Assembly (NCBI GenBank): GCA_947589015.1
Contig: CANPZF010000005.1
Location: forward strand, 4,341-68,340
From: an uncultured Clostridia bacterium
Lineage (GTDB): Bacteria; Bacillota; Clostridia; TANB77; CAG-508
Direction: 5' to 3'
Length of the DNA: 64,000 bases
Shown: one piece after another, positions 7,001 to 56,836 of the stretch
Position numbering within the stretch: the stretch's first letter is position 1
Layout of the letters: the number at the start of each line of letters is the position of its first letter
Notes under the pieces: generated by a model
The model's database searches: none
Told to the model about the DNA's origin: nothing
Seen by the model: the letters and a program-made list of their open reading frames with translations, nothing else
Position numbers and translations under genes: made by a program

Positions 7001-10000
7001 TAACTTGGCTATTTATTTTAGTTACTTTTCCTAAATCTGCATTTTCTAAAAGAAGTCTTGCTGTTTGTAATTCATCTAATAATGCTTGTTTATCTGGATG
7101 GTAATCTCTTTCTCCTGCACTTCCACCTATTTTTTCAATACCCGCATTTAACTCTGATTCTAATGCTGATATCTTATCTTCAACTTTTTTCTTAGCATCT
7201 GCTGTGCTTATATCATCAGCTAGTTCTAAATGCATTGCATCTTTAAATAATGCATTTATTCTTCCTTCTACATCATCATATTCATAGAATCCCATTTCTG
7301 CAATTGTTATATCTCTATTTCCTGTGCTTGCATTTCCTATTGAAACAACTATTCTATCTGTATAAATTGGTTGTTGTAGTTTTACAGCTGTATATTTATT
7401 TCCTTCAGCATCTTTTTTTGTAACAACTTGTGATGCATCCACTCTAACTTGTTTACCTTTATTAGCAGAACCTTCTCTACAATCATTATACCAAACTCTA
7501 GCATAACCAAAGTCACCATTCCATTGTACTTTTGCTAATGTTATATAATTCATTTCATAAGCTTTATCAAACTCTACTATTACACCTTTGTCTGGACCCA
7601 TGTAGAATCCACCGAAATCCCAGTCATCTACTTGTAAATATGAGCCAAAACTATTATCTGCTACACCTTTTGCTGAACCTACTATAACTTGTCCATCTTT
7701 AGTATCTAATGGGCTATCTTTCATATTTCTGTTATCTGCTTTGACAAAAGTTATATTTTTAATATGGGCTGATAATACACCTGCTCCATTAGATGTATTT
7801 ATTCTCTTATATGTTGGTAATTCAACTTCTTGTACAGCTAATGTACTTGCTGTAGCTGTTTGTGAAGGATCACTTATACCTAAACTGTTACATGCAAAAA
7901 CTCTTATTGAGTATTCTGTTGCTTCACTTGCTAATCCTGTAATTGTATAAGTTGTTTCTTTTATTCCTATTGTTTCATCTCTTTTTGTTACTGGATTATA
8001 TTTAACTTCTACTTGTGTTGCTCTCTTAAATTCTTCATTACTATTTGTTGGTTTATATTCTACTATATAACTTGTAGCTCTTGGGTCTGCATTCCATGAA
8101 ACTTTTATTTGTTGATATCCACCTTTTAGTGTTACTCCAGTAGGTGCATTTGGTTTGCTTGTTGGCATTGGTTTTACTGGATATTCTTCACTATATTGAC
8201 TATACCAATCTCCATTAACAGAACGTACACTTACATTATATACTGTATAATCATTATTTGGATCCTGATCTAATAAGTCTTTTATTGATTTGCCGTTAAA
8301 TTGTTCTATTTTTATTTCATGTCCATCTACATCAAATAATTCGCTTACTTTTCCCTTTCCTTTGAAGTTAGCTGTTACTAATACTTGATATCCTGTTACA
8401 TTTACTACATTGTTCCATTTTACCATAAAACTTTCTTCTGTTATAGATGCGTCTATATCAGCTTTTCTAAGTTCTGGTATACTTAATTCTGGTTCTGGGA
8501 TTTTATCTTCCATACCATTTAAAAATTCTACTTTTGATATATCTGCCAATTTGTTACTTGTTGTTCCTGTAACATTTATTATTACTCTTTTTACAGCTAT
8601 AGCATTTCCAAAGTCAACTACAATTGTTCCATCTTTTTCAATCTTGGCTGTTCCTCCAGATATTGGTTCGTAATTTATCTTTGTTGATTGTGTACTATCA
8701 TTAATTACAGTTTGTTGCTCTGCTACTTTATATATTGATTTTATTGATGCTGTTTCTTTTTCTGTTTCTCCTATTTTACATTCAATTTCTACATCTTTTC
8801 CTGTTTCATTATTATGTCCATCTACTATTATAGTTCCTTCTGTTATATTGTTATTTATATTTGAAGATGGTGCTATGCTTAATAATTGTGTTTCTGCTGT
8901 ATCTTCTTCTATATCTATTGCAATACTTATTGGGTTTGTATCTGATATATCTTCATTTTTTGCTGGTTTTAAAGTTACATGTTTATCATTGTTTTCAAGT
9001 ATATCATCTATAGTTCCTGAACTAGTTGAATCTACTGCTCCTGTTTGAGCTTTTGTTTCAACTTTAGTTGTATCTATATTTGTTAGAAATCTTGCTGATG
9101 CACCAATAAATGAATGTCCCTTATTTAATGCTGCATAAGATATATCAGCAATATCTACTACTCCATCTTTATTTAAGTCATATGTATAATCATATATATT
9201 ATGATTAGGTTCTGTATTTCTCTTTCCTTCAATATTATTTACTATATCTGTCACATCATCTAATGTAATATTTCCGTCTTTATTAACATCACCTATTCCA
9301 ATAACTCCTGTTCTTCCTTTTTTAGTTGTTTGTTCCCCTTCTGGACCTAACATTGAATTTCCATTGCTATCTACTATTCCTAATGCATCATAACCATTAG
9401 TTAAATGTAATTCAGAAGTTGTATTTCCCTTTATTTCTACATTTGCTTGGGTAAACGTCTGATATCCCTTTCCTGATATAGTTAATGTGTACATACCTGC
9501 TGGCAATTCATTAAATGTATAGAAAAGTTGTTTTTCTTTTTCTATTCCATTTGCTTTTGTTGGTGCTCCTTCGTCATATAGTCCACTTTTCTTTAAAGTA
9601 ACTGTTAGATCATTTGCTGACATATTTTTTTGAGGGAGTCTTAAATCTATACTAAGATTAAGTTTCCCCTTTAATTTTGATGTGTCAAGTTCTTGTGTTT
9701 CAGGTTCGCTTTCACCTTCACCATTGTCGTTGTCTTCATCTTTGCCATTGTTTTCACCCGCATTTACTTCAGTTGGTTGGTTGTTGTCTATTGTACTTGT
9801 CACACCTCTTACTTTTGCCTGTTCTTCTGATGCTGATTTTTTTGTTGCTTCATCTTTTTTCTCTTCTGATGTATTGTTTTCAGTTCCTAAAGTGTTTTGT
9901 TTTTCTTGATTTGTTTCTTCTTCAGGTTCTGCTTCTTTTTTTGGCTCTTCTGTTTTCTCTGAATTGTCTTTTGATGAAGCACTTTCTTCGTTAGTAATCT

Positions 10001-12164: not shown

Positions 12165-12226
12165 AATATTCCTCCTAAATTAGATATTATATAATATGTA
12201 ATCTAATTAAAAAGGTTCTAAATTGA

Positions 12227-12385
12227 CTAGAGTATTATATATAAAAATTACGTTCTTTACTGGCAAAACAAATCACATAATGAATTATATAAAAACTTCT
12301 AAAATAGAAAGTTAATCTAATTCTTTGTATAATTTGGGGTTTTGCCAAACTGCGCATCACTTCATTTTTATATATAATACTCTAG
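12227..12385. repeat. Palindromic insert in the feoA-feoB spacer: 17-bp perfect inverted repeats (CTAGAGTATTATATATA) 125 bp apart, with a nested second inverted repeat (TGGCAAAAC / GTTTTGCCA).
   Basis: 12227-12243 is the exact reverse complement of 12369-12385. The inner inverted repeat lies at 12260-12268 and 12339-12347. Confidence 0.6.
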
Positions 12386-12394
12386 CTATTTTAA

Positions 12395-13760: not shown

Positions 13761-13848
13761 ATTTATAAAAAAATCACTTAAACTATACTCTTATTTTTAG
13801 GTATAGTTTATTTTATCTCACTCATAATTTCGATGCACAACAAAAAAA

Positions 13849-13890
13849 GTTGCCAAATAAGAACGTCCCTAATGGCAACTTCTATTTTTT
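13849..13890. terminator. Bidirectional terminator between the convergent asd and small membrane protein genes.
   Basis: caaaaaaAGTTGCCAaataagaacgtccctaaTGGCAACTtctatttttt. Confidence 0.55.
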
Positions 13891-14227
13891 AAACTTTTTT
13901 CCAAAACCAATCTAAGCTATTATCTATACTCTTTTTGCCTAGTTTTTTTGCTTCTATATCATCTACCCATAAATAAGAGAAGAATGTAATCAATATAAAT
14001 ACAAAATCTATTGCTAAGCATCTTGATAGTGCAGATATTAAATATCTATATTCTTCTGGTAAAGTCATCATCTGTGCTACATGTACAACTAACAAAATTA
14101 AATAAGCAAATAATGGTAAAGCTGTTATATAACTCTTTTTTATTTCTTGTGCTAAAAATATTAATAACACTGTTGCTGCTAACATTAATAGTAGTGTTAA
14201 TGGATTTGATATATCAAAAATAAACAT
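13889..14227 (-). CDS. Small hypothetical membrane protein (3 predicted TM segments).
   Basis: Hydrophobic 112-aa ORF with RBS GTGAGGAA. No recognisable family. Confidence 0.45.
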   Translation of the reverse strand: MFIFDISNPLTLLLMLAATVLLIFLAQEIKKSYITALPLFAYLILLVVHVAQMMTLPEEYRYLISALSRCLAIDFVFILITFFSYLWVDDIEAKKLGKKSIDNSLDWFWKKV

Positions 14228-45884: not shown

Positions 45885-46164
45885 TGTAATTCTCCTTCCT
45901 TATCCTTTAAAATTATTCTCTATATTAAGGCACAAAATCAAATTTGTCAAGTATATTTTTCAAATTTTTAAAATTGACTGTTACAGTATAATGGTTACAA
46001 ACTTAGAATATTAAAAATGCTTATATATTAATATTTGCAGTCAAGACCCAGATTGTTACACCCCAGATATGTTTTGACAAAACATATTAATATATAAGCA
46101 TTTTCATAGCTGATTTTTAAATCATTATCTTGTAACAGCAGACTTTTTACTTGCAAAATATCAA

Positions 46165-54429: not shown

Positions 54430-55332
54430 TTAGTTTACACTTCCTATTATTCCTGCGTCATTATTTAAAATAGCTGTTTCTATAACAATTTCTTTCCTAT
54501 TGTTAAATAACAAATTTCCTTTTAATATTTTTTGTTTTAATTTTTCCAATAAAACATCTTCAAAAAATACAAAACTTCCCCCTATTCCTATTGCTTCTGG
54601 TTCAAAAATATTAATAAGGTTAGAAATTCCTATGCTTAGATAATCTATATATTCATCTATAACTTTATTTATTTTTTCATAATTCTTATCTTCTTTTTTA
54701 TTTTTTCTTATAAGGTCTAATAATTCTTGTCCTCTTGTTGTTTCATTTAATCCTAATTGTTTTCTCAAATTATCTTTTAGAACTTTCATAGAAGCATATC
54801 TTTCAAAACATCCATTTTTCCCACATTTACAAGGTTCTCCATCTTTTTGAATAATCATATGTCCAAATTCACATCCTGGCAAATCTCCAGTATTTAATAG
54901 TTTTCCATCAATAATAACTGCTCCTCCTATGCCTGTTCCTAATGTTAAAAATAAACTTCTGCTATAAGACTTTAAAACTCCATATTTACTCTCTGCAATT
55001 GCTGCACATTTTGCATCATTTCTTATTTTTATTGGTAATTTTAATCTTTCTTCTAAATTATCAACTATATTATAGTTTTCTAAACCTAAATTAACTGATT
55101 TTTTAACAATTCTATCTGTAACTGTTCCTGGAATTGCTATTCCTATACTAGTAATTTCATATTTTTGTCTAAAATTATTAGTGTTTTGCACAATATAATT
55201 TTCGATTACATTTATAATATCTTTCTTTTCTTTGTCTAAAATCCTCTTTTCAACTTTTTCTAAAATAACTCCTTTATTATCTACTACTCCAATGGCAATG
55301 TGACTACCACCTAAATCAATTCCAATCTTCAT
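54430..55332 (-). CDS. glcK: ROK family glucokinase.
   Basis: MKIGIDLGGSHIAIGVV, and CxCGxxGCxE zinc motif CKCGKNGCFE. The start is placed at MKIGID, behind RBS AAGGA. The 32-codon extension in the ORF track is rejected. Confidence 0.8.
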   Translation of the reverse strand: MKIGIDLGGSHIAIGVVDNKGVILEKVEKRILDKEKKDIINVIENYIVQNTNNFRQKYEITSIGIAIPGTVTDRIVKKSVNLGLENYNIVDNLEERLKLPIKIRNDAKCAAIAESKYGVLKSYSRSLFLTLGTGIGGAVIIDGKLLNTGDLPGCEFGHMIIQKDGEPCKCGKNGCFERYASMKVLKDNLRKQLGLNETTRGQELLDLIRKNKKEDKNYEKINKVIDEYIDYLSIGISNLINIFEPEAIGIGGSFVFFEDVLLEKLKQKILKGNLLFNNRKEIVIETAILNNDAGIIGSVN

Positions 55333-55358
55333 ATTTCTCATCCTTTTTTCATAAACTA

Positions 55359-55496
55359 CCAAGGTTGCCGATGGTCGCCAAAGGTTGCCAAAGGGGACGT
55401 TCTTAAATGGCAACTTATAAGTTGCCATTTAAGAACGTCCCCTTTGGCAACCTTTGGCGACCCCTTGGGCAACTCCTTTGGCGACCTTAATTCAAT
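55359..55496. repeat. GC-rich composite palindrome: a 74-bp perfect palindrome (55381-55454) flanked by imperfect tandem copies of an 11-12-bp unit CCTTTGGC(A/G)ACC.
   Basis: 55381-55417 is the exact reverse complement of 55418-55454. The flanks are ccaaggttgccgatggtcgcc on the left and tggcgaccccttgggcaactcctttggcgacc on the right. GC is near 50% in a roughly 27% GC background. Confidence 0.9.
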
Positions 55497-55498
55497 CC

Positions 55499-56836
55499 TT
55501 AAACTCCATATGCTGAGAACAAGAATTGACCCATATAAACTTGAACACATGGTACCAACACAACCAATACGAAGAATATTAAAACAACACCCACTATTGC
55601 ATAAACAACTTGTGGTAAAGCTTTCATTATTTTTGTCATAATATTATCTATATCAATTTCCATATATTCTACTAATTTTTCAATCATTTCTGTCAAGTCT
55701 GTTTGCATACCTATTTTCAACATCTCTGTAGTCATTGGCGAACCAAGTTGAGCTTTTTCAAATGGCTCAATCCAAGAAGAACCTATTAAAATATTATTTA
55801 TTGAAGTTTCTATCATTGATAACATAACATAATTTTGAACTACATTTCTACTTACTTCTAAAGAGTCTTGAATTCTCATTCCATTTTTTAAGTTCAACAA
55901 TAATGCTTTCATTAATCTTGAAAAGTCTAAAGCATAAATTAATTCTCCAAATATAGGCATTGTATATTTAAAGTAATGATAATTATATTTTCCTTTTGGT
56001 GTGTGAACATAAAATACAATCACCCCTGCTATTGCCGCTATCACAATAACTGGTATATACCAACACTGGGCAAGTCGATCAACTACTCCTGCAAACCACA
56101 TTGTAATTGCTGGCAATTTTTCTTTTGTTCCTAATTCATCAAAAATTCCTTGAATTGCTGGAATTGCAACTAAAGTTCCTACGAATAACATTACTAAAAG
56201 TAATACAAACTGTACAAGATTAGGTATTAATATTGATTTTAATTTTCTATTTAAACTATCTGTATCATCTAAATATTTTACTGCCTGTTGTAAAGAATTT
56301 GTCAATGAACCTGAAAGTTCACCTACTTTTATCATATTTACATATATATATGGGAATACATTTGAATAATATTCCATTGTAGTATACATATACTCTCCTG
56401 CTTCTACTCCTGCTAATATATCTTCTAGAATTCCTCTAAATGACATATTTTCTGTACTTTGTATTATAGTATTTAAAGCATGTATATTATTAAAATTAGC
56501 CTTTTTTAATAAATAAAAGTTTTGTGTAAATACTACTATATCCCTTGGTGTTATTTTTTCAAAATATAAATTAATTTTTTCAATCGGTGTAAGACTTTTT
56601 ATTTTTTGTTGTCCTATTCTTGTTGTATTTACATTTTTCATTACATCATTAATATCAACAATATTCTTCTTTTTTGTCTTTTTATTATTAGATGAATATC
56701 TTAGTTGTATTATGTCTATTGGGATTAAGTCACTTCCCTTTAACGATTTAACTAAGTTTAATTTATTAGCTGCTTCTACTTTATTTCGAACTAATAGTCC
56801 ATTTTTCGTTACAGCTCTATACATATATGTAGGCAT
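55499..56836 (-). CDS. pilC: Type IV pilus platform protein PilC (GspF family).
   Basis: 445 aa, three TM segments and two cytoplasmic GspF domains. Confidence 0.8.
   Translation of the reverse strand: MPTYMYRAVTKNGLLVRNKVEAANKLNLVKSLKGSDLIPIDIIQLRYSSNNKKTKKKNIVDINDVMKNVNTTRIGQQKIKSLTPIEKINLYFEKITPRDIVVFTQNFYLLKKANFNNIHALNTIIQSTENMSFRGILEDILAGVEAGEYMYTTMEYYSNVFPYIYVNMIKVGELSGSLTNSLQQAVKYLDDTDSLNRKLKSILIPNLVQFVLLLVMLFVGTLVAIPAIQGIFDELGTKEKLPAITMWFAGVVDRLAQCWYIPVIVIAAIAGVIVFYVHTPKGKYNYHYFKYTMPIFGELIYALDFSRLMKALLLNLKNGMRIQDSLEVSRNVVQNYVMLSMIETSINNILIGSSWIEPFEKAQLGSPMTTEMLKIGMQTDLTEMIEKLVEYMEIDIDNIMTKIMKALPQVVYAIVGVVLIFFVLVVLVPCVQVYMGQFLFSAYGV

Follow-up and report, generated by a model that had tools for sequence, protein, structure and literature searches.

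The spacer under study lies in a 64-kb window (the whole stretch of DNA that was analysed), where a compact GC-rich element separates a pilC-like gene from a ROK-family, glucokinase-like gene, glcK. All genes around this spacer are on the minus strand, and the gene context given in the initial annotation, with the element between the two genes and directly past the pilC stop codon, is correct (Table 1). On the other side, about 28 nt lie between the element and the ribosome-binding site (RBS) of glcK, and no promoter-like site was called in between. According to the inverted-repeat analysis, the core of the element is a perfect palindrome of 90 bp, consisting of two 45-nt arms without a loop. 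The initial annotation had rightly described it as perfect and loop-free; the arm length of 37 nt that it gave is too short. The raised GC content noted at the same time is real, with values of 0.49 (55359-55496) and 0.51 (55361-55488) against 0.267 for the whole window. Taken as RNA, the element strand has a folding energy of -100.5 kcal/mol (z = -14.4), and taken as DNA one of -64.7 kcal/mol (z = -15.9). No U-tract of the kind found at terminators was called at 55361-55488, and the 3' flank reads GGUAGUUUAUGAAAAAAGG. For lack of this tract, the element cannot count as a canonical terminator, as had been concluded before.

The 64-kb window holds no second perfect long inverted repeat. Two imperfect, AT-rich inverted repeats occur in intergenic positions at 12219-12393 and 46014-46104; they have, in this order, arms of 35 nt and 34 nt that are 86% and 85% complementary and lie 105 nt and 23 nt apart.

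As the palindrome is free of stop codons, it gives rise to misleading reading frames. The two spurious ORFs pointed out earlier, 55356-55550(-) and 55444-55641(+), are joined by a third artefact: the longest ROK ORF, 54430-55428(-), has a false N-terminal extension of 32 codons that runs into the palindrome, so that its product counts 332 aa versus 300 aa. Close ROK homologues are mostly 300-302 aa long, with some annotated up to 313, and the 310-313 aa annotations of several of them possibly have a similar upstream cause.

Table 1. Features of the pilC-glcK spacer and of the further hairpin unit in the window.
Feature	Position	Strand	Remarks
Whole compound element	55361..55488	.	128 bp, 51% GC; perfect palindrome plus imperfect outer units
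Left palindrome arm	55373..55417	+	45 nt, 100% complementary to right arm, 0-nt spacer
Right palindrome arm	55418..55462	+	centre TTATAA at 55415-55420
H unit, copy 1	55383..55415	+	GGTTGCCAAAGGGGACGTTCTTAAATGGCAACT; core GGGGACG at 55393-55399; covariance model R1, 44.6 bits, E = 4e-10
H unit, copy 2	55420..55452	-	identical to copy 1, convergent; core at 55436-55442; R1 match
Three tandem 10-nt units	55363..55392	+	GGTTGCCGAT, GGTCGCCAAA, GGTTGCCAAA; last is the 5' stem half of H copy 1
Four opposite-orientation units	55443..55486	+	TTTGGCAACC, TTTGGCGACC, CCTTGGGCAACT (degenerate 12-mer), CCTTTGGCGACC; first is the stem half of H copy 2
pilC-like gene (T2SSF family)	55499..56836	-	PF00482; stop codon 10 nt from the element
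ROK-family (glucokinase-like) gene, glcK	54430..55332	-	start ATG at 55332; RBS AAAGGATGAG at 55337-55346
Single H, third window copy	13848..13880	-	AAGTTGCCATTAGGGACGTTCTTATTTGGCAACTTTTTTT; R1, 47.3 bits; 8 nt past a stop codon, between convergent genes

Each arm of the palindrome contains one 33-nt hairpin unit, hereafter H, and the two identical units stand tail to tail with a spacer of 0; copy 2 is in sense orientation relative to the pilC transcript. H combines a stem of 7-9 bp (here GTTGCCA/TGGCAAC) with an apical segment of the form WW-GGGGACG-NNNN-WWWW, in which GGGACG is invariant and the positions next to it vary. Species-representative genomes were scanned for two tandem units, which returned three loci of like architecture in metagenome-assembled genomes (MAGs) of low-GC Clostridia, with an AT-rich spacer between the arms. 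A scan of metagenomes with the outer 20 nt of the arm added five complete copies, likewise low in GC. Whether further copies exist had been raised as a question by the initial annotation, and they do: the covariance model R1 finds exactly three H units in the 64-kb window, at 44-47 bits with everything else at or below 17 bits, and, in 217 kb of contigs from related, uncultured low-GC Clostridia, 37 of them. The same search of high-GC contigs returned zero H units. The density amounts to three units in 64 kb of this genome and one to four strong matches per 21 kb in the relatives.

The GGGACG motif is invariant across 31 distinct H sequences. In the same set, the stem is 88.6% paired, with both sides changed in all eight pairs, and 0 of 500 shuffles reach the covariation score; these statistics are biased upward, since the presence of a stem was one of the grounds for choosing the seed sequences, and the second alignment was fitted to the model. 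The stem types comprise GTTGCCA, GTGCCA, TCGCCA, TGTCC, TTGGCA and GAGGGA, and subfamilies are common to different genomes. Rfam scans of the element, of a single H and of related loci gave only sub-threshold matches to generic hairpins (miRNA precursors), and BLAST of the element against plasmid and phage collections gave no match. Scans of viral contigs yielded chance coding matches in high-GC contigs and one single H beside a tRNA. Literature searches found no description of H; the family therefore appears undescribed, while the class of element is familiar. The earlier idea of a MITE-like insert of foreign origin is thus half right: the element belongs to a family of repeats, but one that is native to a clade of low-GC Clostridia.

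Several other identities for the core motif and the palindrome were discarded. A DNA uptake sequence would have to be far more frequent than GGGGACG, which occurs just twice in 64 kb, both times within the element. A sigma-54 promoter, an integron attC site, a CRISPR repeat, a cre/CcpA box and an inverton were compared by eye with their consensus or architecture, and misfit in spacing, orientation or consensus.

H occurs both singly and in pairs. The third copy in the window is a single one, preceded by an A-run and followed by a T-run (T7), with an apical part of 15-17 nt. It looks like a bidirectional terminator, given its place between convergent genes and the T-runs on both strands; the 112-aa ORF upstream (13889-14227) has no Pfam match. 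Singles in general lie mostly 0-8 nt past a stop codon, in sense orientation and followed by 4-7 T; nine of about 12 are sense to the nearest upstream gene, with three or four running antisense. The genes on either side are housekeeping genes unrelated to one another, namely spoVAC, gerA, a PP-loop ATPase, phosphoglucomutase, uridine kinase, a dehydrogenase, a tRNA synthetase, pgi and queA/tgt.

The doublets are without exception convergent (H+ then H-, 10 of 10), with perfect arms of 21-45 nt. Their spacers measure 23-46 nt, the window copy being the sole doublet with a spacer of 0, and additional pairs of H are spaced 106 and about 240 nt apart. Within one doublet, the two H differ on average at 0.5 of 31 columns (at none in 8 of 10), versus a mean of 5.3 between doublets. 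Identical arms are nevertheless found at unrelated loci of different genomes (L016 = L021 = L031, with L010 close to L029). No homology was detected between the spacers of different doublets, even where the arms are identical (all z < 2). This combination of identical arms with unalignable spacers poorly fits the simple descent of whole doublets and hints at some other copying process. Capture of phage DNA as a source of the spacers was considered and dropped, as the two spacers searched gave chance-level matches only. At eight doublets the inverted arms are present and no target-site duplication is visible. A filled-versus-empty comparison at queA|tgt met close relatives with a different downstream gene, that is, with different synteny.

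The outer parts of the element consist of short tandem units. At up to two mismatches, CCTTTGGCRACC has eight matches in the window, 1.55 being expected; 0 of 100 shuffles reach eight, and seven of the eight lie at 55363-55486, which bears out the flanking units described in the initial annotation. The 10-nt unit, GGTYGCCAAA, corresponds to the 5' half of the H stem followed by AAA, and an AAAGG microhomology brackets it on both sides (AAAGG-TTGCC-AAAGG-GGACG). The number of units per side is one in L021, L024, L025, L029 and L031, one and two in L016, two and two in L019, and three and four in the window. The microhomology, together with this variation from one to four, speaks for slippage rather than iterons, and the differences in unit number are minisatellite-like variation, not a fixed binding array. 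A T-to-C variant of the unit (GGTCGCC) is mirrored in both arms of the window copy, which indicates that the arms were copied from one another after the units had expanded.

The orthologous pilC-glcK spacer can be followed in relatives by the identity of their ROK proteins. L043 (81%) has four tandem sense H-like units there, and L034 (79%) has one H downstream of a canonical terminator. In L044 (72%) a split H pair lies about 240 nt apart. L035 and L041 (71%) carry one H plus a degenerate one, with further H at glcK|tkt and tkt|ftsE, while L037, L038 and L045 (70-71%) have one H located 7 nt past the pilC stop. In several relatives, H units are concentrated around glcK-tkt. Since the spacer is already occupied by H in relatives with 70-81% ROK identity, in other arrangements and within a clade to which the family is native, a recent foreign insertion in the window is contradicted, and with it the foreign origin proposed before. 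Judged from these sequences, the window element is one local state of a spacer in which H units would duplicate, invert and decay.

Two further observations concern this spacer in the relatives. A conserved glcK promoter (TTGTYS-N17-TATGATATAAT) abuts an antisense H remnant (CGTCCCTATTGTCC) in L044 (9905-9950), L039 (2422-2470) and L037 (about 2470-2500), so that the -35 region overlaps an old H stem; the window is without the promoter seen in these three relatives. In L038 (2229-2364), and also in L045 (about 9690-9825), the pilC-glcK spacer has an AT-rich terminator palindrome whose loop carries an insertion of 136 bp, with inverted ends that match imperfectly (TTAATATTCTCGGT... / ...ACATTCGAATAAT). 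The otherwise near-identical L037 is without the insertion, which makes this a clean case of presence/absence polymorphism for a MITE-like element of another kind.

The pilC-glcK palindrome belongs to a REP-like repeat, of which it is an unusual copy, and is neither a protein-binding array nor a foreign insert. We consider it probable that it represents a locally rearranged compound copy of the short dispersed hairpin repeat H. In this scenario the H doublet would have arisen in situ, the 10-nt units would have been expanded by replication slippage between the bracketing AAAGG microhomologies, and the spacer of the doublet would have been deleted, leaving TTATAA at the centre. Intrastrand template switching, perhaps joined by selection for pairing, may keep the arms identical. 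Template switching turns quasipalindromes into perfect ones, and the arms of its products are perfect even at positions that vary between copies, as they are in H (PMC7202029). It is a process and H a family of elements, on which it would presumably act.

The gap between the element and the glcK RBS is too short for a promoter, so the element is most likely transcribed within the pil-glcK mRNA, and we infer that its likely role is that of a very stable hairpin in this transcript. The transcribed element would fold into a stem of about 45-55 bp, which could serve as a strong barrier to 3' exonucleases, as a weak terminator or as a likely target of RNase III. Termination at the element would be inefficient because of the missing U-tract. 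Such a stem could uncouple the expression of pilC and glcK without a dedicated binding protein. Co-transcribed intergenic repeats whose hairpins can be cut by RNases or can stabilise the mRNA are a known class (PMC1590033). The Correia/NEMIS repeats of Neisseria, the ERIC repeats of Yersinia and the Efa and Ype repeats likewise measure about 100-130 bp, have inverted ends and form long RNA hairpins upon co-transcription (PMC1590033), which in the case of the window element would be expected from its position. In these families, however, the internal sequence is conserved, and Correia elements have target-site duplications, whereas in H the arms alone are conserved and no duplication was seen. 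With intrinsic terminators, H singles have in common a GC-rich stem 0-8 nt past the stop codon and a subsequent T-run; they differ in the apical part, which is 15-17 nt long and conserved in sequence, and the window doublet, devoid of a U-tract, was not called as a terminator.

Among the alternatives to be weighed, an assembly product, either a fold-back chimera or a collapsed spacer, is the least credible and can hardly be maintained. In its favour, every assembly is based on short reads, possibly from one study, and five contigs (L003-L006 and L008) stop within the arms, overlapping by k-1. Such ends are what a true inverted repeat produces, since de Bruijn graphs break there, and the break points match its outer edge. 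Several other metagenome assemblies also have contigs that encode the exact ROK and PilC proteins. In two samples, contigs (L001/L007, which are one contig, and L002) span the spacer with an identical 165-nt sequence, crossing the centre of the palindrome with unique flanks on either side; the comparison of independent assemblies, named by the initial annotation as a way to expose an artefact, thus turned out in favour of a genuine palindrome. Related doublets occur, moreover, in many unrelated assemblies. A perfect 90-bp palindrome without a spacer is expected to be prone to deletion, as in E. coli, and the persistence of this one in several samples may point to selection or to a very recent origin. 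Also very improbable is a DNA array of iteron or centromere-like type, whose helix-phased units of 10-12 bp would bind a protein cooperatively around a cruciform. The 10-bp period and the mirror-image arrangement of the units would suit such a function, which goes back to the protein-binding or iteron-like site proposed by the initial annotation. Iteron and partition-site arrays, though, consist of repeats of fixed number beside a rep or par gene, whereas here the units are the outer half of the H stem, vary from one to three or four depending on the copy (one per side in most family members) and have pilC and a ROK kinase as neighbours, with no replication or partition gene nearby. The window contains no other array. 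Tandem CTTTGGCRAC arrays found in high-GC phyla (Frigoriglobus, two Proteobacteria MAGs, Streptomyces and RUG194) have the 10-mer in common with the element, but they do not match the H model and are treated as unrelated.

Closer to the evidence, and still rather doubtful, is the view that H is a REPIN-like non-autonomous mobile element, copied as a single-stranded hairpin by an HUH/Y1 transposase acting in trans (a RAYT or an IS200-type TnpA), with a window doublet that lost its spacer. In the outline given in PMC3337134 and PMC3116915, a REPIN is formed by two inverted REPs around a spacer and is mobilised by RAYTs; an inverted pair of short palindromes accompanied by singlets falls under the definition as outlined in PMC3337134. 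H, with its ten convergent doublets and about 12 singles, has this architecture. Like the REP/BIME/REPIN sequences of Proteobacteria (E. coli, Pseudomonas), it consists of short, GC-rich palindromic units that are intergenic and prefer the 3' ends of genes, that occur as singlets, clusters and inverted long-hairpin doublets, and that form subfamilies, here shared between genomes, with arms conserved far above the spacer. The occurrence of identical arms at unrelated loci in different genomes would also be expected from mobility. There are differences, however. REP/REPIN sequences are conserved at a GTAG-type 5' tetranucleotide, whereas H is conserved at the apical GGGACG and has an A/G-rich 5' flank (AAAGG) that varies across subfamilies. 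Genomes with a REP/REPIN system have tens to hundreds of copies and a cognate RAYT gene, typically flanked by REPs. A crude motif scan of 316 kb for HUH/Y1 transposases gave no candidate, no RAYT is known from the H clade, and RAYT-type subclasses are sparse and not listed for Clostridia (PMC6006769). Neither a target-site duplication nor a clean filled/empty site was found, the queA relatives differing in synteny, and occupation of the orthologous site predates the split of the species. In addition, H is hosted by a low-GC Firmicute, its doublets have unrelated spacers even when their arms are identical, and in the window copy the spacer is missing. Since the GTAG signature is absent and no RAYT was found in the 316 kb scanned, H is not filed here as a member of the REPIN-RAYT system, though it is REP-like in appearance and presumably in its workings. 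We regard it as unlikely that H is instead a cis-acting RNA motif whose GGGACG tip is bound by a termination, antitermination or stability factor, the palindrome displaying the motif on both strands. An invariant tip on a stem that covaries, G-U pairs included, the prevalence of sense singles and the clusters around glcK-tkt would agree with this; the antisense singles, the lack of a common function among flanking genes and of any matching Rfam family, and the burial of the tip in a long duplex within the doublet do not. Unlikely to the same degree is a broader proposal, in which H would be an undescribed, RAYT-free, self-propagating hairpin repeat system of low-GC Clostridia, its doublets being made de novo around arbitrary host DNA by fold-back or template-switch copying and the window palindrome being the end product. 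Copying of this type would explain identical arms around unrelated spacers.

Read as a rearranged copy of H, the palindrome also has a bearing on genome analysis. The H model (33 nt, invariant GGGACG) provides a searchable family of GC-rich hairpins for the AT-rich Clostridia of gut and rumen type; low-GC Firmicutes had come out of an earlier survey without any large repeat family (PMC1590033). H loci account for three practical problems, namely assembly breaks, over-extended starts, as in the ROK gene, and spurious ORFs. Perfect arms around unrelated spacers, together with a natural 90-bp palindrome, offer a test case for the homogenisation and tolerance of inverted repeats in bacteria.

Some minor observations were made at other loci. 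In high-GC genomes, multi-copy elements consist of tandem 10-mers around a hairpin (TTGGCAATCT/TTGGCAACCT or degenerate NNGGCGACC), with the 10-mer in common with the window element but no match to the H model; they are located in L012, L014, L017 and L020 (Frigoriglobus MAG) and in L009, L011 and L015 (Proteobacteria MAGs). The contig L023 (VOFC01003342.1), with an H at 7204-7235, encodes four tRNAs and has very little coding sequence under genetic codes 11 and 4; it may be a degraded region, use an unusual code or be organelle-like. Finally, at 591-738 in L025, modules containing GGGACG make up a further long composite palindrome (GGGACGTGCTAAAACGGTC...AAAAGGGACAGACC, then a loop and the mirror image), which suggests that more than one hairpin family may share the GGGACG core.
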